This document shows, one piece after another, positions 6,349-23,442 of a DNA stretch of 23,442 bases. The notes below the pieces were generated by a model. The model ran no database searches, was not told the origin of the DNA, and saw only the letters and a list, made by a program, of their open reading frames with translations. The stretch's first letter is position 1; each line of letters starts with the position of its first letter. The stretch spans positions 1-23,442 of the forward strand of contig JABMQQ010000185.1 of the NCBI GenBank assembly GCA_013202495.1, in the 5' to 3' direction. Source of the stretch: Fidelibacterota bacterium (GTDB lineage: Bacteria > Fidelibacterota > UBA8477 > JABMPR01). The position numbers and the translations under genes are program-made.

Positions 6349-7515
6349 ATGTCTGTGATCGAAAAGTTGAACAAAAACCGCATTTTAATGTGGCGGGTCG
6401 TAATTGTTATCTCTACCATATTAATATCCTATTTTCACTTCACAACACCCCCTGATGAAGGTCATATACACCTCATTCTAATGCAGTTTTACCTCATCCC
6501 AATTCTTATCGGTGCTGTCCAGTTTGGAGTCATAGGAGGATTTGGAACTGCCATAGTGATAAGTGTGATTGTTGCTCCACACATTATTTTTCAATGGATC
6601 GGGGGTGCTCAACACCATTTGTTGGGATATCTGCAAATTGCCATCTACAACGCAATCGGCTATTTAACTGGGTTGAAATCCCAGCTAGAAATGAAGGCTA
6701 GAAATCATCTTGCTGCCACGGCTGATCAGTTAACCCAAACACTTACTACCCTAGAAAAACAATCTGAAGAGATGGCGGAGCTTGAAGAACAGGTGAGTCA
6801 TTCAGAGCGCTTATCCGTGATCGGCGAACTCATGGCAAGTTTGGCGCATGAGCTAAGAAACCCTTTAGCATCTATTCGTGGGAGCGTGGATATCTTGAAG
6901 AAGGAGCTAAGCGAACACGAGAAGCGAGGTGAGTTCTTCCAAATACTGGTAAATGAGACAGAAAGAATGAGTGGGGTTGTTGAAAACTATTTGGCACTCG
7001 CTAGGCGTAGCAAGGGTGTCGAAGTTGAGTATGATATAATTGAGATCATAAGAAACACTTCCCTTTTATTAGCCAGTAGGGGACGCCGTGATCAAATAAT
7101 CATTAAGTGTAATCTTCCAGAGGAACCACTCGTGATAATGGGTGATCCAAACGACCTAAGACAAATATTGGTCAATCTGATTCTTAATGGGATTCAAGCA
7201 ATGGATAACCCGGGTGCAGTTTCTATTACCGCTCAGATAGAAGATAACGCTGAAAAATTATGTATCATCAACATAGAAGATGAGGGTACAGGTATTCTCG
7301 ATGAGCAATTCGAAAAACTGTTTGAACCATTTTTCTCAACCAAAGAGCAAGGGACAGGATTGGGTTTGAGCATTGTTAAGCGAATAGTTGAGAATAGAGA
7401 ATGGCAAATCCGAGTGGAGAATCGGAAACCCACGGGTAGTAATTTTACACTATCAATCCCTCTTGAAATAAATGAACCAGACCAGGCAACACAAGGATCA
7501 CAAACAAATGTATAG
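6349..7515 (+). CDS. Sensor histidine kinase with a membrane-embedded sensor of 4-5 transmembrane helices. It resembles NtrB, ZraS and AtoS partner kinases of sigma-54 regulators.
   Basis: The N-terminal roughly 110 aa are all hydrophobic helices carrying His residues (HIHLIL, APHIIF, AQHHLL). A coiled-coil follows, then the H-box MASLAHELRNPLASIRGS and HATPase_c motifs (LNGIQAM, GTGLGLSIVKRIVE). Its stop overlaps the response-regulator start by 8 bp. Confidence 0.9.
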   Translation: MSVIEKLNKNRILMWRVVIVISTILISYFHFTTPPDEGHIHLILMQFYLIPILIGAVQFGVIGGFGTAIVISVIVAPHIIFQWIGGAQHHLLGYLQIAIYNAIGYLTGLKSQLEMKARNHLAATADQLTQTLTTLEKQSEEMAELEEQVSHSERLSVIGELMASLAHELRNPLASIRGSVDILKKELSEHEKRGEFFQILVNETERMSGVVENYLALARRSKGVEVEYDIIEIIRNTSLLLASRGRRDQIIIKCNLPEEPLVIMGDPNDLRQILVNLILNGIQAMDNPGAVSITAQIEDNAEKLCIINIEDEGTGILDEQFEKLFEPFFSTKEQGTGLGLSIVKRIVENREWQIRVENRKPTGSNFTLSIPLEINEPDQATQGSQTNV

Positions 7516-8860
7516 TGTTTTACTTATTGATGATGATATGAGCCTAAGTCGGGTGTTGGGCTACCAACTGGAGCAAAGCGGATTTGATGTAGTTGTCGTG
7601 AATAGTGGCAAAGATGGTCTTGAACAGTTTAAAGAAAAGAGTTTCGATATTGTCGTCACAGATATTCAAATGCCAGATATGTCTGGAATTGAAGTCCTGG
7701 GCGAGATACGTAAAATTGATGTAAATATTGTCATTATTCTCATAACTGCCTATGGGAGTGTTGACAACGCCATCGAGGCTTGCCGTCTGGGGGCAGATGA
7801 TTATCTAACCAAGCCATTTGGCCAAGAGCAGCTGCTATTTGTAATTGAAAAGGCAATGCGTCTCCGGGAGCTTCAGTCGGACAACACAAAGCTCAGACGT
7901 GAATTAAAGGGCAAACATAATTTCAGCAACCTTGTCACGAATAATTCCGAGATGGAAAGTGTATTGGAAATGGCTGGGCAAATAGCAGATAGTGAAACAA
8001 CGACACTAATTCTTGGCGAGAGCGGTACGGGCAAAGAGCTCATAGCTAAAGCTGTTCATTACAATAGTTCTCGTGCCAAGAAACCACTTATCACGGTAAA
8101 TTGTCCTTCAATTCCCGACAATCTACTTGAGAGTGAGCTATTTGGACACGTTCGTGGATCCTTCACCGGAGCTATAAGGGACCGTAAGGGCAAGTTTGAA
8201 ATGGCTAATGGTGGTACAATTTTCCTCGATGAGATTGGAGACTTGCGTGAAACGGTGCAAGCTAAGTTATTGAGAGTTTTACAGGAGCAAGAAATTGAAC
8301 GTCTGGGTGATTCCAAAACTACAAAAGTAAATGTACGAATAATTGCAGCCACTAATAAAGACTTATGGCAACTCTCCCAAACGGGAAAATTTAGAGAGGA
8401 TCTATATTACAGGTTGAGTGTAATCCCTATCACAATTCCTCCACTGCGCGATAGATCCGGGGATGTACCGATACTAATAAATCATTTCCTAAAGAAATAC
8501 TCTAGAAGCAAAAACTTCAAAATAGATAGTGAAGTCTTTGATATTCTCGATCATTATTCATGGCCAGGTAACATCCGGGAACTTGAAAACCTTGTGCAAA
8601 GACTTGTTACCCTGACAAAAGGGGAGCTGATAACATCAAGTGATCTCCCAGGCCACATACGGTCATCAGAAGCTAATCTCAATCCTCTGTCGCTTAAAAT
8701 CCCTGCTGATGGTCTCTCCCTTCACGAAGTGGAAGAAAAACTCATCCGAGAAACACTTCAAAAAGCTAATGGCAACCAATCCAAGGCTGCAAGATTGCTA
8801 AAAATCCCCAGACATGTCCTATTGTATCGTTTGAAGAAATTAGGAATCGTCCACCAATAA
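7508..8860 (+). CDS. Sigma-54-dependent response regulator (NtrC family; REC + AAA+ sigma-54 activator + Fis-type HTH)
   Basis: REC domain: MYSVLLIDDD...DIVVTDIQMPDMSG...KPF. Walker A is GESGTGKE and Walker B is IFLDEIGDL. The sigma-54 contact loop reads VRGSFTGA, a GSFTGA variant of GAFTGA. The C-terminal HTH is QSKAARLLKIPRHVLLYRLKKLGI. The start at 7508 was chosen because it places the ATG overlapping the upstream kinase's TAG (ATGTATAG). Confidence 0.95.
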   Translation: MYSVLLIDDDMSLSRVLGYQLEQSGFDVVVVNSGKDGLEQFKEKSFDIVVTDIQMPDMSGIEVLGEIRKIDVNIVIILITAYGSVDNAIEACRLGADDYLTKPFGQEQLLFVIEKAMRLRELQSDNTKLRRELKGKHNFSNLVTNNSEMESVLEMAGQIADSETTTLILGESGTGKELIAKAVHYNSSRAKKPLITVNCPSIPDNLLESELFGHVRGSFTGAIRDRKGKFEMANGGTIFLDEIGDLRETVQAKLLRVLQEQEIERLGDSKTTKVNVRIIAATNKDLWQLSQTGKFREDLYYRLSVIPITIPPLRDRSGDVPILINHFLKKYSRSKNFKIDSEVFDILDHYSWPGNIRELENLVQRLVTLTKGELITSSDLPGHIRSSEANLNPLSLKIPADGLSLHEVEEKLIRETLQKANGNQSKAARLLKIPRHVLLYRLKKLGIVHQ

Positions 8861-8930: not shown

Positions 8931-9035
8931 ATCTATATCCAATTCTGGGCACCTATTAAGCTAGCTCAATAATTAACTTTAATATACTGTAAATACTAGA
9001 TATAAGCATTTCCAATCCTCGCGATATTTTGACTT

Positions 9036-9051
9036 GGCACGCAAGTTGGAA
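9036..9051 (+). promoter_or_regulatory. Sigma-54 promoter, TGGCACG-caag-TTGGA
   Basis: It matches the TGGCACG-N4-TTGCW consensus except for one base (TTGG in place of TTGC). The identical architecture recurs at 16220. The predicted TSS is near 9061-9063. Confidence 0.6.
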
Positions 9052-9436: not shown

Positions 9437-10708
9437 ATGCAAATCCAAAAATTGTTACTGCTAGTCACTCTAACGAGCCTAAGCTTTGGTCAAGTGACTG
9501 CAATTAAGCAAATAGACCTGCAGGATCTTATTAAGGAAGGTCTTTCTAACAATCCATTTAGACAGGCATACTATGAAGATATTGGCATTGCCGAATCTAA
9601 GGTTTCACAATCAGGAGCCCTGCCTGATCCGATGTTATCGCTCAACTTAATGAATTTACCTTTTGAGAATTTTGGGTTTGATCAAGAGCCTATGTCTGGG
9701 AAGCAAGTTGCATTTAAGCAGGGAATACCCTTTCCGGGAAAACTAGGCCTTAAGGAACAGATTGCAAAAGTAGGGGTTAAGATTTCGAACGACCAATATG
9801 CCGAAGTAAGCAACGGACTCGTAAGAGATATTTCTAAGACCTATTATGATCTATTCTTTGTGGACGAAGCGATAGCCACAATCGACAAAAACCGTCAATT
9901 AGTTTCTGAACTGCTCAAAGTAGCCGAACAAAAATATGCAGTTGGTAAAGGTTTACAGCAAGATGTACTAAAAGCCCAAGTAGAACTGTCACTTATGACA
10001 GAGAGACTCATTTCACTGAATCAAAGCAGAGACCGTATTGAAGCTAACCTAAACGCACTCTTAAATCGACCAATTGACCAATCTTTTGGATCCATACAGA
10101 AACCCCAGATCAAACAGTATTCACTGTCATTTGCTGAGCTTAAAGCAATTGGCGATGAGAATCGACCCCTGCTTAAGCAATGGCAGAATCGTATTGAGAG
10201 AAGTGGGAGAAAAATCGAATTAGCTAAGAAGAATCTTTTACCGGATTTTGCAATAAGCGCGGCGTATACCCAACGTGATATTCTTCAGAGCGGAATGGGT
10301 GGCGCTGACTTTCTTTCTACTGGGATTAGCCTCAATCTCCCGATTTATGCGAAAAGCAAACAAAAGCAAAATATCAACGAGAAACGGATAGAGCAGAAAA
10401 GTTTAGAGGAAAGACGTGAAGGTGTCCAGCAGAAAGTATACCGAGATATAAGTAACGGCTTAACAGAGCTAATCGAAAATACAGAATTGCTGGAGTTGTA
10501 TCGGACGGGAATTATCCCCCAGGCAGCACAGTCATTAGAATCAACGCTTACCGGATACCAAACTGACAAAGTGGATTTCCTGACACTTATCAGTAGTCAA
10601 ATGACACTGTTTAATCTCGAACTTGAATACGCAAAACTAATTAGCAAACATAACAAAAATATAGTTGATCTAGAGTTTTTCATTGGCACGTCTTTGCCTC
10701 TGAATTGA
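9437..10708 (+). CDS. Outer-membrane efflux protein (TolC / OEP family; CusC- or CzcC-like outer-membrane factor)
   Basis: Signal peptide MQIQKLLLLVTLTSLSFGQVTA with no lipobox Cys. It has the two-repeat OEP architecture with coiled-coil segments (LNQSRDRIEANLNALLNRPID, LELYRTGIIPQAAQSLESTLTGYQTDKVDFLTLISSQ). Confidence 0.85.
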   Translation: MQIQKLLLLVTLTSLSFGQVTAIKQIDLQDLIKEGLSNNPFRQAYYEDIGIAESKVSQSGALPDPMLSLNLMNLPFENFGFDQEPMSGKQVAFKQGIPFPGKLGLKEQIAKVGVKISNDQYAEVSNGLVRDISKTYYDLFFVDEAIATIDKNRQLVSELLKVAEQKYAVGKGLQQDVLKAQVELSLMTERLISLNQSRDRIEANLNALLNRPIDQSFGSIQKPQIKQYSLSFAELKAIGDENRPLLKQWQNRIERSGRKIELAKKNLLPDFAISAAYTQRDILQSGMGGADFLSTGISLNLPIYAKSKQKQNINEKRIEQKSLEERREGVQQKVYRDISNGLTELIENTELLELYRTGIIPQAAQSLESTLTGYQTDKVDFLTLISSQMTLFNLELEYAKLISKHNKNIVDLEFFIGTSLPLN

Positions 10709-10735: not shown

Positions 10736-12241
10736 GTGTTTCGGAGAATAAAAATGAGAACAGTAGTAAAAATATTGATAGTTGTACTAAGCATAGGGTT
10801 GGCGGCATTTGTTGTCAGTTGTGGATCAGCTAATTCAGACAGTAAGCATGAGCATACGAAAAATGCAGAGGGTCTATACACCTGTGGAATGCATCCCGAG
10901 GTTATTCTGGAAGGACCAGGCCAATGTCCTATCTGTGGTATGAACCTGACTCCCTTGAAACAGAATTCTGTCTCAACAGCCTCTTCCCAAAAACCAGATA
11001 GTGAGCGTAAAATACTGTACTGGCAAGCTCCCATGAATCCTGAAGAAATATATGATGAGCCCGGCAAGTCGAACATGGGAATGGATTTGGTCCCTGTATA
11101 TGATGATCAAACCAGCTCAGGTAGTCAAGTTTCAATCGATCCAAGTACAGTTCAAAACATGGGAGTTCGTACTGCTACTGTTCAGAGGCGGGACTTTAGC
11201 AGAAATATCCGAGCATTGGGCAAGATCGATTACAATGAAGAAAATATTTATGAGGTTTCCTCCAAGATATCTGGTTGGATCGAAAAACTATATGTGGACT
11301 ATACCGGGAAACCAGTCCGCAAAGGTCAGGCTTTATTGGAGTTATATTCTCCTGATTTGGTCACTACACAGCAAGAGTATCTGCTGGCTTTGAAAAACAG
11401 GGAGTTGATCAGCGAATCTAGCTTTGCGAGCATTCGCGAAGGTGCTGAATCCCTACTCTCATCCACCCGCCAAAGATTAGCCTATTGGGATATTCCTGAA
11501 AAAGAAATCCTACGCCTTGAGGATGGCGGCGTCGTCAGTAAGACCATTACTTTTGAATCACCTGCAGATGGAATTGTGATTCATAAGAACGCTGTTGAGG
11601 GCAAGCATATCAAAGAAGGTAGCTCTCTTTATCGAATAGCTGATTTGTCAACAATCTGGGTATTTGCAAGTCTCTATGACAATGAGGTACCGTGGGTGGA
11701 GGTTGGTCAGACTGCAGAAATGGAACTCTCATATGCTCCGGGAAAGATTCTGAAAGGAAAAGTGGCTTACATTTATCCTTATTTGAATGAAAAATCGCGT
11801 GATGTGAAGGTTCGCTTAGAATTTCCAAATCCAGATATGATGTTAAAACCAGGTATGTATGCGAATGTGAGCATTAAGACTCAATCCATCAAGGATGCAA
11901 TGGTTATTCCTTCTGAATCGGTGATCCGGTCAGGCGAAAGGATACTAACATTTATTGCAAAGGGTGAAGGCCGTTTTGAACCTCGTCCAATCAAAGTTGG
12001 GCAAGAGGGAGATAATGGAGAGGTTCTGGTTCTCGCTGGATTGACTGAGGGCGAGGAGATAGTTACCTCAGCTCAGTTCTTACTTGATAGTGAAAGTCGT
12101 CTACAAGAGGCTATCCAGAAGATGCTAAGTGAGAAATCGGCAGCAAGAACTGCAATGGAGCCAGAAGAGGAAGATATGGAGACAACCTCCATGGAATCCA
12201 TGGAGCAAGACTCTGATTCTGATATGGATCATTCTCACTGA
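10736..12241 (+). CDS. cusB: RND efflux periplasmic adaptor (CusB-like membrane-fusion protein) with an N-terminal CxxC heavy-metal-binding domain (HMBD) and an acidic, Met-rich C-terminal tail
   Basis: GTG start with a GAGGGGAG RBS 6 nt upstream. Lipobox VVSCGS. The HMBD (about 10877-10960) reads YTCGMHPEVILEGPGQCPICGMNLTPL. The HlyD/CusB-like core includes YSPDLV...EYLLA and GMYANVSIKT. The C-terminus is EPEEEDMETTSMESMEQDSDSDMDHSH. Confidence 0.85.
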   Translation: MFRRIKMRTVVKILIVVLSIGLAAFVVSCGSANSDSKHEHTKNAEGLYTCGMHPEVILEGPGQCPICGMNLTPLKQNSVSTASSQKPDSERKILYWQAPMNPEEIYDEPGKSNMGMDLVPVYDDQTSSGSQVSIDPSTVQNMGVRTATVQRRDFSRNIRALGKIDYNEENIYEVSSKISGWIEKLYVDYTGKPVRKGQALLELYSPDLVTTQQEYLLALKNRELISESSFASIREGAESLLSSTRQRLAYWDIPEKEILRLEDGGVVSKTITFESPADGIVIHKNAVEGKHIKEGSSLYRIADLSTIWVFASLYDNEVPWVEVGQTAEMELSYAPGKILKGKVAYIYPYLNEKSRDVKVRLEFPNPDMMLKPGMYANVSIKTQSIKDAMVIPSESVIRSGERILTFIAKGEGRFEPRPIKVGQEGDNGEVLVLAGLTEGEEIVTSAQFLLDSESRLQEAIQKMLSEKSAARTAMEPEEEDMETTSMESMEQDSDSDMDHSH

Positions 12242-12314: not shown

Positions 12315-15300
12315 ATGCTAGAAAAGATTATTGAAGCTTCAGTGAATAACCGATTCCTGGTCATCTTATTTACGGCTCTGATTGCTTTAGGGGGAATCTA
12401 CGCGGTTCTCAATACACCGATTGATGCTATCCCTGACCTCAGCGATGTTCAGGTTATCATTTTTACGGAATTTCCAGGACAAGCACCTCAGGTTGTCGAG
12501 GATCAGGTTACCTATCCACTTACCACAGCCATGTTGGCAGTTCCATATGCAAAAGTAGTCCGGGGATATTCATTCTTTGGTCTCTCATTCGTTTATATCA
12601 TTTTTGAGGATGACACTGATCTTTATTGGGCCCGAAGCAGGGTTCTTGAGTATCTGAATTACGTATCAAGTCGTCTCCCTGAAGGAGTTACACCGACCTT
12701 AGGTCCTGATGCGACTGGAGTAGGTTGGGTATACGAATATGTGCTGGACGGTGGAGATGAATATGATCTTCAACAGCTCAGATCTATTCAAGATTGGTAT
12801 CTCCGTTACCAACTAACTGGTGTGCCCGGTGTGGCAGAAGTGGCCAGTATTGGTGGCTATGTCAAACAGTATCAGGTAGAGATAGATCCCAATAAACTAC
12901 TCGCATATAACATTCCTATTCAAAAAGTGAAAATGGCTATCAAGCGCAGCAATAATGATGTTGGTGGAAAGCTCATTGAGATGGGCGAGACGGAATTCAT
13001 GGTGCGTGGACTGGGATATATCAAAAACAAAGAAGATATTGAGAAAATTGCGCTGGGCGTAGACTCCGAAGGAACACCCATTCTCATTAAACAGATTGCC
13101 AATGTCAATATAGGCCCTGAGTTACGTCGAGGAATAACTGATTGGAATGGTGAAGGAGAGGCCGTCGGAGGTGTAATTGTTATGCGCTCTGGCGAAAATG
13201 CTCTCAAAACTATTGAGCTTGTGAAGGAAAAACTTGAAGAATTGAAGAAAGGCCTTCCGGAGGGTGTGACTATCAAGTCTGCCTACGATCGTTCAGGCCT
13301 AATCAATCGAGCTATCGACAATTTGAGCTTAAAGTTACTTGAAGAGTTATTGGTAGTGGCGATCGTGTGTATTGTTTTCCTGCTCCATTTTCGGAGTGCA
13401 TTTGTAGCACTCTTCACATTACCAATGGGCATACTGGTATCATTTTTCATTATGTATTTCCAGGGTATTAATGCCAACATTATGTCCCTGGGAGGAATCG
13501 CAATAGCCATTGGAGCTATGGTTGACGCTGCTATTGTGATGATTGAGAATGCTCATAAGCACCTCGAAAGAGACAAAGGTAAAAAAGACCACTGGCAAAT
13601 CATTATCGATTCTTCCAAAGAAGTAGGACCGGCTTTATTCTACTCATTGTTGATTATCACAGTATCCTTTCTACCAGTATTCACACTAGAAGCACAGGAA
13701 GGACGCTTGTTCAAACCCCTCGCATTTACAAAAACGTATGCCATGGGTGCCTCAGCCTTCCTGGCGATTACCATTGTTCCCATTCTTATGGGTTATTTCG
13801 TTCGTGGTAAGATTCTCCCTGAAAACAAGAATCCAATAAGTCGCTTTCTTATGAAGATATATAGACCCATTATTCATGCAGTGTTGCGTTTTAAATGGGC
13901 AACCATTGTTATTGCCATAGTAATCATGGCAATAACCATAATTCCCCTTGGAAAAATTGGATCAGAATTCATGCCTCCACTCAACGAGGGTGATCTTCTA
14001 TACATGCCAACAACTGATCCTGGTATCAGTATTACTAAGGCAAAGGAACTTTTACAACAGACCGATAGGATCATTAAGAGTTTCCCTGAAGTTCACCACG
14101 TTTTTGGTAAGATTGGTCGTGCTGAATCAGCAACAGATCCTGCTCCTTTATCTATGATAGAAACAACAATAATGTTGAATCCTACAGATACCTGGCGTGA
14201 TGGAATGACCATTGAAAAGCTCATCCTTGAGCTGGACGCAGCTATCCAGTTTCCTGGATTAACCAATGCCTGGACCATGCCCATAAAAACGAGAATCGAT
14301 ATGCTTGCTACCGGTATCAAAACCCCAGTAGGCATCAAGCTAATGGGACCAGATCTGGAGGTTCTTTCAGACTTGGGACAAGAAATAGCCGGTGTGATCA
14401 AGGATGTTGAGGGGACCTTAAGTGTATTCCCCGACAAAACGATAGGTGGAAACTTCCTGGACTTTGACATCAAGCGTGACGAAATCGCCCGTTATGGTCT
14501 AACCGTCGGTGATGTACAAGATGTAATCATGTCCGCTATAGGTGGAATGAACGTGTCCTATACAGTTGAGGGGTTGGAGCGTTATCCAATTAATGTCAGA
14601 TATAGTCGTGAATTACGTGATAATATTTCAGCATTGAAAAGAGTTTTGGTTCCAACACCTTCGGGAGCTCAGATTCCAATGGAATATTTAGCAGAAATCA
14701 AGATCGTCAAGGGTCCCCCCGTCATAAAAAGTGAAAACTCACGCCAGACAGCCTGGCTATATGTTGACTTGAGAGGAATTGATGTTGGTACTTATGTAGA
14801 AAACGCAAAAAAGGTTGTGGAAGCCAATATATCATTTCCAGAGGGTTATAGTCTCGTTTGGTCTGGTCAATATGAATATATGGAACGTGCGGCAAAGAAA
14901 TTAAAGATCGTTATCCCTATAACTCTGCTAATCATCTTTTTGTTGCTATATTTCAATTTCAAGAACTTTACTGAAAGTGTGATTGTGATGTCCTCCCTAC
15001 CATTTGCTTTGGTAGGTGGTATCTGGTTCATGTATTTTCTGGATTACAACTTTAGTGTGGCTGTAGGTGTGGGATTTATCGCACTGGCTGGTCTAGCTGC
15101 AGAAACAGGTGTCGTCATGCTGGTCTACCTTGATAATGTGTTTGCTGAAAAAGTGAACAGTGGAAAAATGAGAAGCCTGACAGATCTTTATGATACTGTG
15201 ATCGTTGGAGCTGTTGAACGCGTTAGACCCAAGCTGATGACGGTAACAACCACCATGTTTGGACTTGTACCGATCCTTTGGGGAACTGAGGCTGGATCCC

Positions 15301-15569
15301 AAACTATGAAGCGTATTGCCGCGCCCATGGTTGGCGGAATGGTCTCCTCAACTATACTAACTCTCATAGTTATTCCTGCAATTTATTATCTCTGGAAATC
15401 GCGAGAAGTGAAAAGCATTATCAGCAAACTACAATTAGATGGTTCAACTGAGCCTGTTGAACTCATTTCCATTGATGCACACTCTGAAGAGACACCAATT
15501 GAAATCGAGGCAAAGCCAAATGAGAATCTCGATGATAATAATTCTACCAAGCTGGGACCAAACGAATAA
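12315..15569 (+). CDS. cusA: Heavy-metal-efflux RND pump, CusA-like (Cu(I)/Ag(I) type)
   Basis: 1084 aa with 12 transmembrane helices and two large periplasmic loops. The TM4 region AIAIGAMVDAAIVMIENAHK...GPALFYSLLIITVSFLPVFTLEAQEGRLFKPLAFTKTYAM is near-identical to the CusA signature as I remember it, and it lacks the CzcA-type acidic TM4. A roughly 60-aa acidic C-terminal extension is present. Confidence 0.95.
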   Translation: MLEKIIEASVNNRFLVILFTALIALGGIYAVLNTPIDAIPDLSDVQVIIFTEFPGQAPQVVEDQVTYPLTTAMLAVPYAKVVRGYSFFGLSFVYIIFEDDTDLYWARSRVLEYLNYVSSRLPEGVTPTLGPDATGVGWVYEYVLDGGDEYDLQQLRSIQDWYLRYQLTGVPGVAEVASIGGYVKQYQVEIDPNKLLAYNIPIQKVKMAIKRSNNDVGGKLIEMGETEFMVRGLGYIKNKEDIEKIALGVDSEGTPILIKQIANVNIGPELRRGITDWNGEGEAVGGVIVMRSGENALKTIELVKEKLEELKKGLPEGVTIKSAYDRSGLINRAIDNLSLKLLEELLVVAIVCIVFLLHFRSAFVALFTLPMGILVSFFIMYFQGINANIMSLGGIAIAIGAMVDAAIVMIENAHKHLERDKGKKDHWQIIIDSSKEVGPALFYSLLIITVSFLPVFTLEAQEGRLFKPLAFTKTYAMGASAFLAITIVPILMGYFVRGKILPENKNPISRFLMKIYRPIIHAVLRFKWATIVIAIVIMAITIIPLGKIGSEFMPPLNEGDLLYMPTTDPGISITKAKELLQQTDRIIKSFPEVHHVFGKIGRAESATDPAPLSMIETTIMLNPTDTWRDGMTIEKLILELDAAIQFPGLTNAWTMPIKTRIDMLATGIKTPVGIKLMGPDLEVLSDLGQEIAGVIKDVEGTLSVFPDKTIGGNFLDFDIKRDEIARYGLTVGDVQDVIMSAIGGMNVSYTVEGLERYPINVRYSRELRDNISALKRVLVPTPSGAQIPMEYLAEIKIVKGPPVIKSENSRQTAWLYVDLRGIDVGTYVENAKKVVEANISFPEGYSLVWSGQYEYMERAAKKLKIVIPITLLIIFLLLYFNFKNFTESVIVMSSLPFALVGGIWFMYFLDYNFSVAVGVGFIALAGLAAETGVVMLVYLDNVFAEKVNSGKMRSLTDLYDTVIVGAVERVRPKLMTVTTTMFGLVPILWGTEAGSQTMKRIAAPMVGGMVSSTILTLIVIPAIYYLWKSREVKSIISKLQLDGSTEPVELISIDAHSEETPIEIEAKPNENLDDNNSTKLGPNE

Positions 15570-15599: not shown

Positions 15600-15941
15600 A
15601 TGAAAGAGGTTAAAGCATTTATCCGGGGTGACAAGGCAGACGAAGTTATTGCAGCCTTGGAAGAAGTAGGAGTTATCAACTTGACTGTAATCAATGTGAT
15701 GGGTATAGGCCGGAGTCTTGCGCCTTCGAAAGGTGCAAAATACTCTGTTGATCTGACTCAGAAATATTCAACTATAGCCAAAATAGAGATTGTATGCAGA
15801 GCATCTGATACTGCGAAGATAGTGGATGTATTGCGGCAGTCTGCTTACACAGGCATGCAAGGCGATGGGATGATCTATGTTGTCCCAGTTGAAACAGCTG
15901 TCAAAATTAGAACTGGAGCATATGGGGGGGATGCGTTGTAA
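15600..15941 (+). CDS. PII-like (GlnB-fold) signal-transduction protein. It resembles the 'PII new group' linked to heavy-metal RND loci.
   Basis: It aligns by eye to GlnB: MKEVKAFIRGDK..VIAAL.EVGV..LTV..V.G.GR...KIEIV...D.AKIVDVL..SAYTG..GDGMIYV.PVE.AVKIRTG. The T-loop is shorter and lacks the Tyr51 context. The gene sits immediately after cusA, and a terminator follows it. Confidence 0.8.
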   Translation: MKEVKAFIRGDKADEVIAALEEVGVINLTVINVMGIGRSLAPSKGAKYSVDLTQKYSTIAKIEIVCRASDTAKIVDVLRQSAYTGMQGDGMIYVVPVETAVKIRTGAYGGDAL

Positions 15942-15981: not shown

Positions 15982-16036
15982 AGATGGGTGGGCTTTGATC
16001 CTCAATAGGATTAGGGCTCATCCATCTTTTCGTTTT
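15982..16036 (+). terminator. Strong intrinsic terminator with a 21-bp stem: AGAUGGGUGGGCUUUGAUCCU-CAAU-AGGAUUAGGGCUCAUCCAUCU, followed by UUUCGUUUU
   Basis: All 21 positions pair when six G-U wobbles are allowed. It ends the efflux operon 40 bp after the PII-like stop. Confidence 0.7.
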
Positions 16037-16219: not shown

Positions 16220-16235
16220 TGGCACGTGATTTGGA
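16220..16235 (+). promoter_or_regulatory. Sigma-54 promoter, TGGCACG-tgat-TTGGA
   Basis: Its architecture is identical to the element at 9036 (TGGCACG-N4-TTGGA). The predicted TSS is near 16246. Confidence 0.6.
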
Positions 16236-16433: not shown

Positions 16434-17006
16434 ATGACGAGAATGCAGTTTCTCACCAAAACGATGATGATGTCTTTGATGGTCTTTATCGCCGTTTCAA
16501 ATGTCAACGCCCAACATATGGGGGATAATCATCAAGATCAGGATCAAATGAGCGGGGATCAGACCACCCAGCATATGCATGAAAACATGCAGAATATGCA
16601 GCAAATGCAGCAGTCAAATATGATGACCATGGACGGTCAGAGCATGATGATGTCTATGGAAGAAATGATGGAGCATATGAGTCAATTGATGAACCATAGC
16701 GAAGCCATGCTTTCCAGCCTTGAAGACAGCGGCGATCACGGGTTAATGTCCATGTTCAGGGGTGATGATTCCGAGACTCATATGATGGAAATGACTGAAG
16801 ACATGACTGAGATGATGACAGGGATGAATGGATTAATGGAAAATATGCAGTCCATGATGGGCGATCAGGACATGATGAGCGAGGAAGGCATGCAGATGCA
16901 AATGGATAATATGCAATCGACTCTCAACGAAATGGTGGCATCAATGGATCAGATGATGGACAATATGCATAATATTCAAAAGCTTACTCCAAAAGTTAAG
17001 AAATAA
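16434..17006 (+). CDS. Secreted, extremely Met-rich acidic low-complexity protein, a putative periplasmic Cu(I)/Ag(I)-binding 'methionine sponge'
   Basis: AAGGAG RBS 7 nt upstream of the ATG at 16434. The Sec signal peptide is MTRMQFLTKTMMMSLMVFIAVSNVNA|QH. The mature part is packed with MxM, MxxM and HxxM motifs (MQNMQQMQQSNMMTMDGQSMMMSMEEMMEHM...MMEMTEDMTEMMTGMNGLMENMQSMM). The track's GTG start at 16248 would be leaderless relative to the sigma-54 TSS and adds 62 residues before the signal peptide, so it is unlikely. Confidence 0.7.
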   Translation: MTRMQFLTKTMMMSLMVFIAVSNVNAQHMGDNHQDQDQMSGDQTTQHMHENMQNMQQMQQSNMMTMDGQSMMMSMEEMMEHMSQLMNHSEAMLSSLEDSGDHGLMSMFRGDDSETHMMEMTEDMTEMMTGMNGLMENMQSMMGDQDMMSEEGMQMQMDNMQSTLNEMVASMDQMMDNMHNIQKLTPKVKK

Positions 17007-17025
17007 AGAACCTCTAGAACAAATC

Positions 17026-17832
17026 ATGCGCACCAAGAATCAAATTGTCAAAAAGCGTCTCCAAACGACGTGGCTGTTGCTAGCCTGGGTTGCAGGTTCT
17101 GCCCAGGCCGGCCAGTCATGGTCTCTTGCTACTTCAATGTCCTACAATCAAGGCACTTATGTGTATGAAAATACCATTGAAAATTATTACTTAAATTTAG
17201 GAGTAAGGTACAAACAGCCTCTGTGGTCAATCGCAGTAACTCTCCCAATCTTAGCTCAACAGGATAATCTTGAATTGGCTAGCTTTCCGGAGTCAGGCGT
17301 TGCGGATAGTAACGGCGTTCTGACTAACACCCACTGGGGTAACGTAAAAATGGGTGTAGGTGATTTATACATCTTTGGTCAACGCACAGTATGGCAGAAT
17401 TTTAAATCCAAAAGCTCGCTGTCTGCAACCTTTCAATTCAAAGTGCCCCTTGGATTTTCAAGTCAAACTTTTAGCTCACAGAAAAAGGATTACGGTGCAG
17501 GAATTCTATTTAAACAGTATCGGGGAGATTATTCATTTTTCACCGATTTGGGGTATCTGGTTTTAGGTAATCCTGAATGGGGAATCTACAAAAACCCAAT
17601 TAGCTATGGTGCCGGGATTGGCAGGACTTTCCTTCGTAAAACACTTTCCATGTCCATGTACTACCGTGCCTATACAGAAATAATAGACGGGATCTCTCCT
17701 CCTCAGCAGATTTCATTTGGCCTTTATGGCCGACTAAACCGCCAGTCTAACATATCAATAAATTGGACTCAGGGATTGAGTGAGAGCAGCCCGGATAGAG
17801 GCATATCTATGGGGCTAAGTAGGAAATTATAG
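17026..17832 (+). CDS. Putative outer-membrane beta-barrel protein
   Basis: Signal peptide ...LLLAWVAGSAQA. The mature part shows alternating hydrophobic/polar beta-strand periodicity with many Tyr, Gly and Trp residues. The family was not recognised. Confidence 0.55.
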   Translation: MRTKNQIVKKRLQTTWLLLAWVAGSAQAGQSWSLATSMSYNQGTYVYENTIENYYLNLGVRYKQPLWSIAVTLPILAQQDNLELASFPESGVADSNGVLTNTHWGNVKMGVGDLYIFGQRTVWQNFKSKSSLSATFQFKVPLGFSSQTFSSQKKDYGAGILFKQYRGDYSFFTDLGYLVLGNPEWGIYKNPISYGAGIGRTFLRKTLSMSMYYRAYTEIIDGISPPQQISFGLYGRLNRQSNISINWTQGLSESSPDRGISMGLSRKL

Positions 17833-17897
17833 AGTGCTGGACTTGATAGTAAGTTGAGACTCCAGAATAGATAAACACCAAGCAGAAAGGCTACAAC

Positions 17898-18290
17898 ATG
17901 AAATCAATGATCGCAATTATAACACTTAGCACAGGAGTCCTCCTTGGTTGCCAGGATAAGGCCACAGAGCAGGTTAAACAAAGTTCAAGTATGGAACGGA
18001 TTCAAAAATCCGATGTGAGTCATGAGGATCACGATCATGCTAGTATGGAGAAGGCTGTTAGCCCTGAATACTACACATGTCCCATGGAGAGCCACAAGCA
18101 TATTAACAGTCAAGAGGCTGGAAGTTGTCCCGAATGTGGTATGACGTTAGTACCAGTAGTCGAAACGACCGCTGAAGATGCTGAATTTTATGGGTGTCCA
18201 ATGCCTGAACATAGTCATGTCAGAGCAGAAGAAGCAGGGTCATGCCCAGAGTGTGGAATGAACTTAAAACCGATGAAACTTGGCAGCTAA
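17898..18290 (+). CDS. Lipoprotein with two tandem CxxC heavy-metal-binding domains (HMBD), a putative periplasmic Cu(I)/Ag(I) chaperone
   Basis: Lipobox VLLGCQD. The His-rich linker is SHEDHDHASMEK. HMBD1 is YYTCPMESHKHINSQEAGSCPECGMTLVPV and HMBD2 is FYGCPMPEHSHVRAEEAGSCPECGMNLKPM. Both share the motif found in the CusB-like adaptor and the CopA N-terminus. Confidence 0.75.
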   Translation: MKSMIAIITLSTGVLLGCQDKATEQVKQSSSMERIQKSDVSHEDHDHASMEKAVSPEYYTCPMESHKHINSQEAGSCPECGMTLVPVVETTAEDAEFYGCPMPEHSHVRAEEAGSCPECGMNLKPMKLGS

Positions 18291-18345
18291 ACCGAATTAT
18301 CAAAATGACATTATGCGCTGATAGAATAAATGTGAAGGTCCTGAA

Positions 18346-18762
18346 ATGAATAAAAGAACGCTTATGGTAGCAGCAATAATTCTGGGTGCATGCTTGCTAT
18401 TTTTTCAACCCATTTTTGCCAATGCGCTACCCGAAGATTGGGTAGCTCCCGCCAGTGCGGATTCTCTCCAAAGTCCGATAAAATCAAATTCTGATTCTTG
18501 GATGCCGGGGGAAGCCATATACAAAACAGCCTGTGGCGTATGTCATGGTGTAAGTGGGTTCGGTGACGGCATTGCCGCTGTAGCTCTAAATCCGAGACCT
18601 GCTGATTTAACATCCAAAGTGGTGCAAGATCAAAGTGATGGAGCCCTTTTTTGGAAGCTCACAACAGGTAAAACCCCCATGGCCAGTTATAAGGATGTGT
18701 ACACCGATCAGCAACGTTGGGAACTGGTTGAGTACATCCGCAACCTAGAGAAGAAGGATTAG
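18346..18762 (+). CDS. Monoheme class-I c-type cytochrome (periplasmic)
   Basis: Signal peptide followed by a single CGVCHG (CXXCH). A downstream ...DGALFWKLTTGKTPMASY... stretch supplies the Met sixth-ligand context typical of c552/c6-like cytochromes. It ends ...RWELVEYIRNL. Confidence 0.8.
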   Translation: MNKRTLMVAAIILGACLLFFQPIFANALPEDWVAPASADSLQSPIKSNSDSWMPGEAIYKTACGVCHGVSGFGDGIAAVALNPRPADLTSKVVQDQSDGALFWKLTTGKTPMASYKDVYTDQQRWELVEYIRNLEKKD

Positions 18763-18764
18763 AT

Positions 18765-19943
18765 ATGAAATATATTACAACACTATTGATTACGATTTGT
18801 GTATCTGTGTATGGTCAGGACTATTCAGATTTGCTCAAAAAAATTGAAAGCTCGAAACCTGGTGATAGCCAATTTCTGCTTCGGGGGTATGCTCACTCAG
18901 GATATGAAAAAAGGGGTGAAGAATCCAGTTTTGTGGGTGGAAGTTTTAATCCAATATTCCTATGGCGTCAATCTGATAAACTACTTTTTGAGGCGGAACT
19001 GGAATTAGAGCTCGAGCATGGAGAAACCGCTCTTGCTTTAGAATATGCAAACATGGCTTATGAGCTTCGGGACAACTTAACTGTCCGCGTTGGCATGTTT
19101 TTGCTTCCCTTTGGGACCTTCAGTGAACGTCTCCATCCTCGTTGGATAAATCGTCTACCTTCTAGCCCTCTAGGATTTGGCCATGATCCTATTGGTCCTA
19201 TGCGTGACATGGGAATCGAACTTAGAGGAAATACAAAACTCGGAAGCAGAAGCCTTAGCTATTCTCTTTATTCAACCAACGGACCCTCTTTAAATGACGG
19301 GGAAGATCACGATTTGAGTGAAGACGAGGCAGGGATGCTCAATTATCTAAACTTTGAGGACAATAATTCAAATAAAGCGATCGGTGGAAGGCTGGGAATA
19401 TTTCCACTTGCATCACCGGCTCTGGAGTTAGGCTTTTCGGGTCAGATCGCAGAAGTAGGTAATCACGAAACTGAATATGAAAACACTGCTGCCAATCTAT
19501 ATGCACTCGATATGTCATATGTTAATAATATCATTTTCCTAAAGGGTGTTGTAGATCTAAAGGGACAGTTGAATCAAATCAATGTTGATGATGAAAGTTA
19601 TTTCTCGGACGAGGATTCCTCCTCCTACTCATTTTTAAACCAAAGTCAAGCTTCCTATCTGCAGGCATCTTTTAGACCCGCATACGTGAGGAATTCATTT
19701 GTGAAGAATCTAGAAATAGTAGGAAGATACTCCCAAATTGAAACTCCTGAGGGAGCGCTTTGGGAATCAAATCAGTCACAATATGTAGTTGGTCTCAATT
19801 ATTGGTTGGATTGGCGAACTGTTCTCAAAATTGCCTACCAGGTAAATGAGAGCTCCGCAGCAGGTGGCCATGTTGAAGAAGACGAGCACGGGGATGAAGG
19901 TGGGGATAACGCAATACTCATTCACTGGGCATTTGGATTCTAA
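18765..19943 (+). CDS. Porin-like outer-membrane beta-barrel protein
   Basis: Signal peptide MKYITTLLITICVSVYGQ. The C-terminus is aromatic (ILIHWAFGF, ending in Phe), which is typical of outer-membrane proteins. An acidic His-containing loop (HVEEDEHGDEGGD) sits near the C-terminus. The gene starts 3 bp after the cytochrome stop. Confidence 0.65.
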   Translation: MKYITTLLITICVSVYGQDYSDLLKKIESSKPGDSQFLLRGYAHSGYEKRGEESSFVGGSFNPIFLWRQSDKLLFEAELELELEHGETALALEYANMAYELRDNLTVRVGMFLLPFGTFSERLHPRWINRLPSSPLGFGHDPIGPMRDMGIELRGNTKLGSRSLSYSLYSTNGPSLNDGEDHDLSEDEAGMLNYLNFEDNNSNKAIGGRLGIFPLASPALELGFSGQIAEVGNHETEYENTAANLYALDMSYVNNIIFLKGVVDLKGQLNQINVDDESYFSDEDSSSYSFLNQSQASYLQASFRPAYVRNSFVKNLEIVGRYSQIETPEGALWESNQSQYVVGLNYWLDWRTVLKIAYQVNESSAAGGHVEEDEHGDEGGDNAILIHWAFGF

Positions 19944-19972
19944 GTATACTTCACAATTAGAAGGAAATTAAC

Positions 19973-20245
19973 ATGATAAAATCAATAAAAACGACATTAG
20001 GTCTAGCCACAATAATAATATTGTCAACAATGTTCATAACCGCATGTAGTTCACAGAATCCTCCTCTTGAGAAATCTGGTGCACAACTATGGGGTGAAAA
20101 TTGTGTTCGCTGTCACAACGCACCATCTCCATCAGCTTTTAGTGATAACCAATGGGAAACCGTGGCCATGCATATGAAAATCAGGGCAAACCTGAATTCA
20201 TCCGAAACTGCAGAAATTGTTGAATTCCTGCAAATGGCAAATTGA
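19973..20245 (+). CDS. Small monoheme c-type cytochrome lipoprotein
   Basis: Lipobox FITACSS and a single CVRCHN (CXXCH) motif. At 90 aa it resembles small soluble cytochrome c family members. Confidence 0.65.
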   Translation: MIKSIKTTLGLATIIILSTMFITACSSQNPPLEKSGAQLWGENCVRCHNAPSPSAFSDNQWETVAMHMKIRANLNSSETAEIVEFLQMAN

Positions 20246-20940: not shown

Positions 20941-22011
20941 ATGAATCTTTTACCCGAATGGGCTCCGAATATCCACCCCATGCTCATTCACTTTCCAATT
21001 GTACTCCTCCTCCTGGCACCTCTGTTTGACGTAGGAGCATTAGTATTTAAGAAATCACCCTGGTTACTACCAGCGGCGAATTTCTTGTACTTTTTAGCAG
21101 GATTCAGCGTGGTACTTGTATTCATCTCTGGCAAGCTTGCGGCACAGAACATCGACATTCCAACCGATGCCTATGTAACCATTTCAAAGCACGCGAACTG
21201 GGCTCTTTACACACTCATTCTTGCGGGCATAAATGGAGCAATTCGAGTGTTCTTAATGATAAATATTAAGGGGGAATCCTTTTCTAGATGGTACATGCTA
21301 ATACCCGGACTGCTTGGAATTGTATTTCTCATCAATACTGCAGATCAAGGTGCAAAATTAGTATTCGCACATGGTGTAGGTGTATCCGCAAAAATGAACA
21401 GTAACCATCACAAAATGGAAGTTCAGATTGAGTCTGAGGCAGCAGTACACACGCATGAACACGCAGATCCAGATGTCGAGTCACTGCAGTGGTCGGCCGC
21501 AACCAGCACACTTGAGAGCTTTAGCCATAGATTTGAATGGTTAATTACGCAACCAGAAGAAATGGGAATATCCAAGGGCAACAATGAAAATGGAACAGCC
21601 TTTAACATTCATCTAGAAGATCAGGAAACTCTAATCCTTTTTCCTGAATTTGTTTCGAATCTTGAGCTTCAAACCCAACTCAACTTCGATAAGTTTGAAG
21701 GTATTGTTAGATTGGTGCACCACTTCTCAAGCCTCGATCAATATGATTTCTTAGAAGCAAGCTCGACAGAAGTACTACTTGGAAGAATCGTGGGGGGTAA
21801 AAAGAAGATCTTCGATTCTGCAAAGACCAACCTCTCAAAGGCAGTGACTTTAAAAGCCGTCGGCACTGAAGGGCATTTTAGAGGATATGCAGATAACGAA
21901 CTCCTGACCCATGGTCATGGACCAGATTTCCCTGCGGGCAAACTTGGCTTATATTTAAAGGGGAGCGGATTAATTAGTTTAAATGAATTGAGTGGGACTG
22001 AAATCGAATGA
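20941..22011 (+). CDS. DUF2231-like four-transmembrane membrane protein fused to a roughly 200-aa C-terminal soluble domain of unknown function
   Basis: N-terminal HPMLIHFPIVLLLLAPLFD is the hallmark HFPIAL-type motif of DUF2231. Four hydrophobic helices follow. The C-terminal region has a His cluster (HTHEHADPD) and no recognisable motif. Confidence 0.6.
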   Translation: MNLLPEWAPNIHPMLIHFPIVLLLLAPLFDVGALVFKKSPWLLPAANFLYFLAGFSVVLVFISGKLAAQNIDIPTDAYVTISKHANWALYTLILAGINGAIRVFLMINIKGESFSRWYMLIPGLLGIVFLINTADQGAKLVFAHGVGVSAKMNSNHHKMEVQIESEAAVHTHEHADPDVESLQWSAATSTLESFSHRFEWLITQPEEMGISKGNNENGTAFNIHLEDQETLILFPEFVSNLELQTQLNFDKFEGIVRLVHHFSSLDQYDFLEASSTEVLLGRIVGGKKKIFDSAKTNLSKAVTLKAVGTEGHFRGYADNELLTHGHGPDFPAGKLGLYLKGSGLISLNELSGTEIE

Positions 22012-22340
22012 AGATGCTCACGTTTCTTCATTTGATCAGATCGTGGACTCGGCCCGGGTTAGAATCGATCAATAAGCTTGGATTTCCGTTAGTTCTGGCT
22101 TCCCACTCAATGCTTTACGATAACCCATCTAGCAATCAAGATGGTATGAGAAATGATGTGAGCGGGATAAAGATCGATAAAGGGCCGCGCATGGACCAAT
22201 ATCGATTTGGAAAGGGGATGCCTATCAATCCAAAACCGATCCATATGCTGGGGTGTCAACATGCTCCAGCTCCCCGCTCATATTTCTTGTTAAATATGTT
22301 TAAAAGTGAATTAAAGGGAGAGAATAATAATGCCAATTGA
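22008..22340 (+). CDS. Hypothetical 110-aa protein (uncertain)
   Basis: It overlaps the upstream stop by 4 bp (ATGA) and the downstream CopA start by 11 bp. This translational-coupling geometry is the only support. There are no motifs and no transmembrane segment. Confidence 0.25.
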
Positions 22341-23442
22341 TCCTGTGTGCGGTATGACTGTAAATGAACCGAGTTCTTACACATCTGATTATAGAGGAAC
22401 AAGATTTCATTTTTGCAGTGCTCATTGCGTAGAACGATTTGAGCAGAAACCAGAGAAATACCCTGAGAGTCATGATGCTCAAATAAATGATGAGGCCCTC
22501 TATACTTGCCCAATGCACCCTGAGATCAAAGAGTCAGGTCCAGGTGCTTGCCCGAAGTGTGGCATGTCCCTTGAACCACTTATGCCAGCTGTCAAGGCAG
22601 ATGCCCCTGAATACACCTGCCCAATGCACCCCGAAATCATTCAGAATCAGCCCGGATCGTGCCCCAAGTGTGGAATGGCACTCGAGCCAATGATCGCCAC
22701 AGAAGATGAGGAAGATCAGGAATTGACTGATATGAGCAGAAGGTTTTGGGTGAGCTTAATCCTGTCTTTGCCCCTTGTCTTTATAACTATGGGCGAACTG
22801 TTTTTTCAGTCGTCCCTGTTTCATTGGAGTTGGCGACCCTATCTTGAATTAACTTTGGCTACACCAGTTGTTCTCTGGGCAGGTGCAACATTCTTTCAAC
22901 GTGGCTGGGCTTCAGTCGTTAATCGAAGTTTAAATATGTTCACTCTGATCGCTCTTGGGACTGGTGTAGCATATGTTTATAGTGTGGTTGCAGTAATATT
23001 TCCACAAATATTTCCCGCTGCATTTAAATCGCCTGAAGGTGTAGTTGCTGTTTATTTCGAAGCCGCAGCGGTCATTACAATGCTGGTCCTTTTAGGGCAG
23101 GTTCTCGAACTGAGGGCTAGGCATCAGACAGGGAGCGCAATTAGAGCTTTACTGGGCCTGGCTCCGAAAATAGCAATGATCATTCAGGAAGATGGAACCG
23201 CTAAGGAAATCCCTTTAAGTCATGTAAAAGTAAACGATCTCCTGCGTGTTAGACCAGGGGATAAAATTCCTGTAGATGGAATTCTCATTGAGGGATCCAG
23301 TACGGTCGATGAGTCAATGATCACCGGAGAGCCAATGGCAGTCAAAAATGGAGAGGGCGATTCTGTTACGGCAGCAACTATTAATCAAACTGGTGCATTT
23401 TCCATGAGAGCGGAAAGAGTACGTGCAGACACTCTATTGTCC
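22330..23442 (+). CDS. copA: Copper-translocating P1B-type ATPase (CopA-like), partial because the C-terminus lies beyond the window. The N-terminus carries a TRASH/YHS-like domain plus two HMBD modules.
   Basis: AAGGGAG RBS 8 nt upstream of the ATG at 22330. Translation runs to the window edge with no stop (371 aa). The TRASH/YHS-like region is DPVCGMTV...[17 protein letters not shown]1 is [27 protein letters not shown] and HMBD2 is [27 protein letters not shown]. Transmembrane helices and the actuator-domain motif [16 protein letters not shown] (TGE) follow. This gene is absent from the ORF track because there is no in-window stop. Confidence 0.95.

Follow-up and report, generated by a model that had tools for sequence, protein, structure and literature searches.

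We examined a 23,442-nucleotide contig of a Fidelibacterota bacterium (GenBank assembly GCA_013202495.1, contig JABMQQ010000185.1), referred to below in its whole length as the window. The subject of the analysis is a gene at positions 17898–18290 of the forward strand (open reading frame (ORF) with an ATG start; stop codon included) that encodes a predicted lipoprotein of 130 residues with two tandem heavy-metal-binding (HMBD) modules. It belongs to a protein family of uncultured marine bacteria; the family has no functional name and is repeatedly encoded beside, or fused to, components of Cus-type copper pumps. The two-module protein had been described in an initial annotation made from the sequence alone, and its HMBD homology was borne out by a hidden Markov model search: Pfam PF19335 matches with E=8e-22 (77.3 bits; cutoff 23.6) in two stretches. 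The remaining Pfam matches, to many zinc-ribbon families, were below threshold, as were all NCBIfam matches (rubredoxin and zinc-ribbon models), and a PADLOC scan returned nothing.

The signal peptide (17898–17951, +) ends in the lipobox LLGC (17940–17951), with Cys18 encoded at 17949–17951. The sequence MKSMIAIITLSTGVLLG-C18 conforms to the lipobox pattern [LVI][ASTVI][GAS]C of bacterial lipoproteins; leucine at lipobox position −2 is less usual, yet falls within the PROSITE profile. From this motif the protein is predicted to be exported and lipid-anchored at Cys18, as the initial annotation had proposed, and 60 of 71 related proteins carry a lipobox-like Cys after a hydrophobic N-terminal segment (regular-expression motif test). 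Residues 19–57 (17952–18068) form a tether rich in His, Met and acidic residues that includes the His-rich linker HEDHDHASMEK, correctly noted before; an AlphaFold2 (AF2) model built from the family alignment gives residues 22–52 a predicted local distance difference test score (pLDDT) below 50, consistent with disorder. Module A (residues 58–87, 18069–18158; YYTCPMESHKHINSQEAGSCPECGMTLVPV) is the best Pfam stretch, with pLDDT of about 95 or more, and module B (residues 97–126, 18186–18275; FYGCPMPEHSHVRAEEAGSCPECGMNLKPM) is the second. Residues 55–130, comprising both modules and a short connector, are modelled with pLDDT of at least 95. A Foldseek search with this model returned zinc ribbons as top matches, none of them significant.

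In an alignment of 30 sequences, the candidate metal ligands of module A (C61, M63, H66, C77, C80 and M82) and of module B (C100, M102, H105, C116, C119 and M121) are invariant. The positions that are invariant or nearly so in this alignment comprise the lipobox Cys, C61/P62/M63/H66/K67/G75/C77/C80/M82 and G99/C100/M102/H105/S106/R109/G114/C116/C119/M121; conservation of Cys18 is at least 90% (alignment A1), and the length of the linker is variable. Both C-x-M...C-x-x-C-x-M sets are complete in 65 of the 66 full-length members from 71 species genomes.

The modules are homologous to the metal-binding domain (MBD) of LpCopA (PDB 8OVL), which was matched with E=3e-4 by the single sequence and 5.8e-8 by the family profile. 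The two share the C-x-M...C-x-x-C-x-M pattern and a preceding His-rich disordered tail, and differ in that the LpCopA MBD is cytoplasmic, present in a single copy and part of a P-type ATPase, whereas the lipoprotein modules are tandem, free-standing and apparently exported. The ligands of module A align to C42/M44/H45/C56/C59/M61 of LpCopA with a 2-residue insertion after CPM; given this insertion, the HMMER alignment places H66 (and H105) on H45. The family modules depart from the canonical HMBD arrangement seen in LpCopA (a CPMHPE core, with 11 residues between C-x-M and C-x-x-C): they read CPMxxHxH, the spacing is 13 residues in 136 of 137 modules (CxM-xx-H-x-H), the His at +5 is likewise present in 136 of 137, and the Pfam match spans 30 residues against 28 model positions. 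By sequence, then, the lipoprotein is a distinct HMBD sub-type with a 2-residue insertion that still falls within PF19335.

In the LpCopA MBD a small beta core of rubredoxin-knuckle type follows a flexible tail rich in His; Ag(I)/Cu(I) is coordinated by three sulfurs, from M44, C59 and M61, with C42, H45 and C56 at zinc-ribbon positions beside the metal, and the site resembles the Ag(I)-bound N-terminal site of SilB (PMC11970713). By analogy, the two lipoprotein modules would form a compact unit of rubredoxin-knuckle type, and each most likely holds a single Cu(I) or Ag(I) ion, at M63/C80/M82 and M102/C119/M121, equivalent to the Met-Cys-Met site of LpCopA; C61/H66/C77 and C100/H105/C116 would occupy the zinc-ribbon positions beside these sites. 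Within the domain family, Cu(I)/Ag(I) binding is known for LpCopA and also for the Met-type sites of CusB and SilB.

HMBD modules also occur in two other window proteins. A six-frame search with the regular expression C[PA]M..C[PA].C.M gave four matches, all in predicted frames, two in the lipoprotein ORF and two in a CopA-type P1B ATPase whose N-terminal part is encoded at 22330–23442 (+) and runs off the window. In this ATPase a YHS domain (22336–22461; Pfam E=1e-15) is followed by two HMBD modules (22498–22581 and 22609–22692; regular expression and Pfam), as had been annotated. The third protein is a CusB-like periplasmic adaptor (10736–12241, +; Pfam HlyD_D23, E=1.4e-79, and two HMBD stretches) with the lipobox VVSC (10811–10822, from the translation). 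The Cys-type HMBD reported earlier at its N-terminus was found at 10874–10957 (Pfam; 8OVL match, E=2.5e-7). It is followed by a second Pfam stretch, a Cys-less, Met-type HMBD (11012–11098; ILYWQAPMNPEEIYDEPGKSNMGMDLVPV) that aligns to the N-terminal regions of E. coli CusB (3NE5, E=1.4e-16) and SilB (5A4G, E=1e-13), regions that hold the Met metal sites of those proteins. With this second adaptor copy, three proteins of the window together carry six HMBD-type modules, of which five are Cys-type and one is Met-type; the five copies counted initially are the Cys-type ones, and that total omitted the Met-type copy.

The adaptor gene lies in a cus operon between genes for a CusC-like outer-membrane factor (9437–10708, +; Pfam OEP, E=5.5e-40) and a CusA-type Cu(I)/Ag(I) pump of the resistance-nodulation-division (RND) family (12315–15569, +; Pfam ACR_tran, E=1e-233). 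The RND protein shares 54.7% identity with E. coli CusA, and the CusA Met-triad positions, which we take to be M573/M623/M672 of the Cu(I) site, are conserved in it, as are three of the four Met pairs. From the identity and the conserved triad, we assign the window RND system as a Cu(I)/Ag(I) pump. Upstream of the operon are genes for a histidine kinase (6349–7515, +) and an NtrC-type sigma-54 response regulator (7472–8860, +; both from Pfam).

A word-indexed search gathered 70 homologues of the lipoprotein, of 88–225 residues, all of which carry PF19335. Where a name is recorded it is 'hypothetical protein' or, in two cases, 'rubrerythrin', and the named homologues come from metagenome-assembled genomes (MAGs) of Marinimicrobia, of the Fibrobacterota-Chlorobiota-Bacteroidota (FCB) group or of Lentisphaeria. 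A species-level scan with one genome per species gave 71 loci, all from MAGs or single-amplified genomes, mostly of Neomarinimicrobiota/Fidelibacterota, with others from Calditrichota, Lentisphaeria and Planctomycetota/Phycisphaerae; several genomes hold two copies of the gene. Among members without a lipobox, most carry a signal peptide that lacks Cys; a few others are truncated or have a possibly mis-chosen start. The tether between the lipobox and the first module is 23–73 residues long; in 60 members it contains 9.1% Met and 5.9% His, an enrichment of about 3-fold over other proteins from these loci taken as background (2.8% and 2.0%). A plasmid collection of cultured bacteria contained no free homologue; what matched there were ATPases, adaptors and, within complex-I-like operons, large HMBD fusions.

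Linkage to cus genes is general in this family. Of the 71 loci, 53 include 3 kb or more of upstream flank, and in 37 of these cusA precedes the gene on the same strand, within 300 nt in 15 and within 1.2 kb in 30; a CopA-type ATPase is encoded in 19 of the 71 loci. Frequent layouts are CusB-CusA followed by the gene; CusA, an 80-residue HMA protein and DUF6122 followed by the gene; and the gene preceded by DUF302/SHOCT/YHS and followed by DUF2231 and a GDT1-like protein. The whole window layout and gene order recur in L005, a 63%-identical relative, with a multicopper oxidase downstream. Among adaptors whose N-terminal region falls inside the fetched flank, 19 of 19 carry a Cys-type HMBD, and many of them have a second HMBD inserted in the beta-barrel region; a C-terminal HMBD pair was present in 0 of these 19 adaptors adjoining free genes.

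The same tandem unit is found in a second form, fused to the adaptor. The family profile was searched exhaustively against 1.84 billion cluster representatives, with 4517 matches at E<=1e-3 (771 at 1e-10 and 54 at 1e-30), and the best 150 of these included 143 newly returned proteins, 70 longer than 200 residues and 73 of 200 residues or less. CusB-like adaptors account for 29 of the 70 longer proteins, and 24 of the 29 have at least two HMBDs after the adaptor core. Thus at least 24 protein clusters carry HMBD pairs or longer arrays, the tandem unit type of the window protein included, at the C-terminus of a CusB-like adaptor. In one of them (P0110), encoded by a single uninterrupted ORF, the C-terminal end reads ...YYGCPMPAHSHIRHDKAGKCEECGMDLKPIRLEK, the same tandem sub-type, and the pair is 50% identical to the window protein over 70 residues. 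The fused adaptors are located in ordinary cus operons, none with an HMBD-annotated small gene within 8 kb; at one such locus (L084) the operon is flanked by the same kinase and NtrC-type sigma-54 regulator pair as in the window. The occurrence of the tandem unit either free or at the adaptor C-terminus is, in our view, the best reason to think that the free protein acts there. The CusF-type domain shows a parallel pattern, being free in E. coli and fused in SilB of C. metallidurans.

The 73 short proteins mostly comprise 2–4 HMBD modules, of both the 13-residue and the canonical 11-residue spacing, and most have a hydrophobic N-terminus or a lipobox. Because 73 of the 143 proteins analysed (among the best 150 of 4517) are short and mostly exported-looking, free exported poly-HMBD proteins are common in metagenomes, and the earlier statement that HMBDs are normally N-terminal appendages of transporters was too strong. 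Many of these free proteins resemble the window protein in combining a signal peptide with 2–4 modules in 88–200 residues; many carry canonical CPMHPE modules, whereas the window family is the paired A/B sub-type with the HxH insertion. A literature search found no paper on free periplasmic HMBD proteins, and PF19335 was named in only one study, for a plastid chaperone described with an ATX1-like ferredoxin fold.

In the window, the lipoprotein gene stands in a cluster downstream of the cus operon. The cluster (16434–20245, +) encodes a Met-rich exported protein (16434–17006), a 268-residue exported protein (17026–17832), the lipoprotein, a monohaem cytochrome c (18346–18762), a porin-like protein of 392 residues with an acidic, His-rich C-terminal stretch (18765–19943; GGHVEEDEHGDEGGD) and a 90-residue CxxCH lipoprotein (19973–20245). 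All genes are on the same strand with gaps of 2–66 nt, no terminator-like site was found between them on the + strand, and they are likely co-transcribed. The cytochrome c, the porin-like protein and the Met-rich protein are almost never present across the 71 loci, and the trio of cytochrome c, porin-like protein and CxxCH lipoprotein is kept in the closest relatives only. The cytochrome neighbour is lineage-specific, because the window cytochrome had no tblastn match in the 71 species-level loci, whereas the linkage to cusA/cusB is general; a functional link with the cytochrome as a general feature of the family was rejected for the same reason. The mature part of the Met-rich protein (about 164 residues) is 25.6% Met with many Gln, Asp and His; it had no match in Pfam or NCBIfam, is kept just upstream of the lipoprotein gene in the close relatives L005, L008 and L010, and is possibly a Met-rich periplasmic Cu(I) binder. 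Downstream of the cluster are genes for DUF302, SHOCT and DUF2231 proteins and CopA.

From the genomic context we propose that the lipoprotein, tethered by its lipid in the periplasm, acts as a Cu(I)/Ag(I) chaperone for CusCBA and delivers metal by directed transfer, a reading to which we give about an even chance. We rate as considerably more likely the weaker claim that the protein is exported, binds Cu(I)/Ag(I) and serves copper resistance. In the proposed mechanism, the tethered protein would capture periplasmic Cu(I)/Ag(I) through its His/Met tether and the two Met-Cys-Met sites, and might also take up metal from CopA; E. coli CopA can pass Cu(I) to CusF. The metal would be passed to the homologous N-terminal HMBD modules of the CusB-like adaptor, the direction of transfer being presumed. 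From there it would reach the CusA Met sites and leave by way of the outer-membrane channel. The lipoprotein would thus do the job of CusF with a domain of the same kind as that of its acceptor, much as CopZ resembles the HMA domains of CopA. The CusF-like shuttle of the initial annotation is upheld as regards the link to Cus pumps (cusA linkage in 37 of 53 loci, at least 24 fused adaptor clusters, no CusF found), while the transfer itself we infer. On a broader and more tentative view, held at somewhat less than even confidence, Marinimicrobia/Fidelibacterota, Calditrichota, Lentisphaeria and some Planctomycetota would have replaced CusF with a lipid-tethered tandem-HMBD chaperone whose donor and acceptor are fold-matched, which was repeatedly fused to the adaptor, and whose HxH insertion and His/Met tether enable it to accept both periplasmic Cu(II)/Cu(I) and Cu(I) supplied by CopA.

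Several observations weigh against directed transfer to CusCBA. The window gene is outside the cus operon, in a separate cluster beyond a terminator-like hairpin (15982–16027), and its companions there are outer-membrane-like proteins and c-type cytochromes. About 30% of the loci with enough flank show no cusA upstream, and contexts vary, from DUF302/SHOCT/YHS/DUF2231 genes to a cytoplasmic HMA protein with DUF6122. It may be usual for adaptors of these phyla to bear an HMBD, and the 19 of 19 with a Cys-type HMBD may then be unspecific. Each module places three Cys in the oxidising periplasm, where disulfides could form. The LpCopA domain was interpreted as a copper sensor that releases autoinhibition, not as a delivery site (PMC11970713). 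Finally, the lack of a CusF, which speaks for the chaperone reading, is weak negative evidence: the CusF Pfam family had no match among the window proteins, and E. coli CusF (tblastn, phmmer) found nothing significant in the window or any fetched locus, with a single probe sequence and about 6 kb of flank on each side.

Among the alternatives to a chaperone, the one we take most seriously, although we consider it unlikely, is a periplasmic buffer or sponge for Cu(I)/Ag(I), perhaps also Cu(II), held at the membrane surface without directed hand-off, as proposed for PcoE/SilE or CopK. The disordered His/Met-rich tether would suit such a role, as would the position of the window gene outside the cus operon, next to one for an exported protein with 25.6% Met; the many free exported proteins with 2–4 HMBD repeats point the same way, multiplied sites being suited to storage. 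However, two ordered sites per protein make for a low capacity, and the recurrent fusion to the adaptor C-terminus, together with the tight linkage behind cusA, indicates work at the pump. The loaded tandem HMBD could instead bind the adaptor or the periplasmic face of the kinase and activate the pump or its expression without delivering the ion. A sensor or switch of this kind overlaps partly with the chaperone explanation, and we give it only a small probability. It would agree with the sensor reading of the LpCopA HMBD and with the sensor role proposed earlier for the N-terminal site of SilB (PMC11970713), and a histidine kinase and NtrC-type regulator flank the cus operons of both the window and L084; yet adjacency to kinase genes is not conserved in the 71 loci, and the adaptors that serve as fusion partners already have their own N-terminal HMBD, so that a second sensor would be redundant.

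The neighbouring genes raise a further alternative, namely copper supply to periplasmic cuproenzymes (multicopper oxidase, oxidases) or redox partnership with the c-type cytochromes (by Cu(II)/Cu(I) or thiol chemistry). The next genes in the window and the closest relatives encode the monohaem cytochrome c, the porin-like protein and the small CxxCH lipoprotein, and the multicopper oxidase lies downstream in L005. With the cytochrome limited to one lineage, against a general linkage to cusA/cusB, and no cuproenzyme consistently adjacent, supply or redox partnership is very improbable. A structural zinc-ribbon protein, with Zn(II) at the Cys/His positions and an adaptor or scaffold role unrelated to copper, would account for the weak sub-threshold Pfam matches to many zinc-ribbon families and for the non-significant Foldseek matches; moreover, C42/H45/C56/C59 of LpCopA align with the ligands of zinc-binding domains (PMC11970713). 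We regard it as barely credible, because the four Met residues are invariant; they are Cu(I)/Ag(I) ligands in LpCopA and CusB/SilB and foreign to zinc ribbons, and the genes around family members are mostly copper-related.

The proposed chaperone can be compared with known carriers. CusF is a soluble OB-fold (oligonucleotide/oligosaccharide-binding) protein with a single His/Met/Met/Trp site. Like CusF, the lipoprotein is small, apparently exported and encoded with a cusCBA-type pump, and the His-rich mature N-terminus of E. coli CusF (NEHHHETM) is comparable to HEDHDHASMEK. Unlike CusF, it is predicted to be lipid-anchored and has two HMBD modules with Cys and Met ligands, and its gene follows cusA or stands in a neighbouring cluster, not between cusC and cusB. 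Since neither the Pfam family nor the probe matched, the lipoprotein is not a member of the CusF family and is proposed only as a functional analogue. The earlier suggestion that its fold differs from that of CusF agrees with the sequence searches; the fold searches with the AF2 model were uninformative on this point. CusF feeds the N-terminal metal site of the adaptor (PMC8277102), and the same role is proposed for the lipoprotein.

The alternation of free and adaptor-fused forms is shared with the Cus-type chaperone of Cupriavidus metallidurans SilB, where the fused C-terminal domain, reportedly described by Bersch and colleagues, is CusF-like (OB fold); the domain fused to adaptors here is, in contrast, an HMBD. 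Like the HMA chaperones CopZ and Atx1, the lipoprotein would be a small free carrier with CxxC chemistry whose fold recurs in a domain of the very transporter that it serves. The HMA domain of CopZ, Atx1 and MerP has a ferredoxin-like fold (PF00403), unlike the lipoprotein, which had no Pfam match to PF00403 and is unrelated to the 80-residue HMA protein encoded beside it at other loci. MerP illustrates that CxxC metal carriers can function in the periplasm.

To our knowledge, CusF is so far the only chaperone type described for Cus-type pumps. Many bacteria with cusCBA are without CusF. The present family is therefore a concrete candidate for feeding CusF-less pumps, and it would extend the HMBD mini-domain from a regulatory transporter appendage to a free extracytoplasmic carrier; should the broader replacement of CusF be true, free poly-HMBD proteins in general would make up a large group of copper carriers outside the cytoplasm that has so far been overlooked. 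The searchable literature contains no account of a tandem HMBD protein that is free and lipid-anchored, of the occurrence of this architecture in uncultured phyla, or of its alternating with fusions to the adaptor. The advance is incremental and does not concern a new kind of system, because HMBDs, Cus-type pumps and the idea of a chaperone for them were known before.

The cus operon and the lipoprotein cluster may be under joint control. Directly after cusA is a P-II-family gene (15600–15941; Pfam E=6e-19), and the terminator-like hairpin, with a 20-bp stem and a T run on the + strand, separates cusCBA-PII from the downstream cluster. Ahead of the cluster is a sigma-54-like −24/−12 box (TGGCACGTGATTTGGA; 16220–16235, +), a putative promoter, with a near-identical twin ahead of the cusCBA operon (9035–9050, +; TGGCACG-N4-TTGGA). 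The shared pattern has two exact matches versus 0 in 100 shuffles, the pattern having been derived from those same two sites; the general sigma-54 consensus with up to 1 mismatch was not enriched, and a sigma-70 promoter scan gave 19 sites, not above the 16 expected from shuffles. Boxes occur at equivalent positions in related contigs (L005 11–25 and 8334–8348; L008 1137–1152). That near-identical boxes precede the two gene groups and recur in two related contigs suggests joint control of the cus operon and the lipoprotein cluster from these predicted promoters.

Other features of the neighbouring genes were noted. The P-II position is also occupied in L005, and a P-II homologue is found in three genome loci. 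The DUF2231 membrane protein of the window (20941–22011) has a long C-terminal extension; in one layout type no gene follows the family gene more often than DUF2231 (12 of 71 loci), and DUF302, SHOCT and a GDT1-like protein frequently accompany it. The adaptors of L028, L033, L057, L062, L067, L073 and others are apparently anchored by an N-terminal hydrophobic segment and have the N-terminal HMBD variant WTCSMHPQ...CPICFM; some of this set end in a conserved FCPMAF...NPYFG..ML.CG domain.

Arrays of 6–7 HMBDs fused to NuoJ-like or NuoD-like subunits of complex-I-like systems were found in P0072 and P0089 and at L081 6344–8794 and L082 5746–7479. Plasmids of cultured Thioclava and Paracoccus carry a large 'heavy metal-binding domain-containing protein' within a nuoA-H-J-K-L-M-N-like operon. 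Finally, a JGI contig (L001) shows no difference from the window as far as 23349 but departs from it beyond that point (L001 15452–16012 versus window 23349–23442). In this contig copA breaks off after 365 residues and a transposase-like gene (HTH_Tnp_1) comes next, which points to disruption of copA by an insertion sequence in part of the population.

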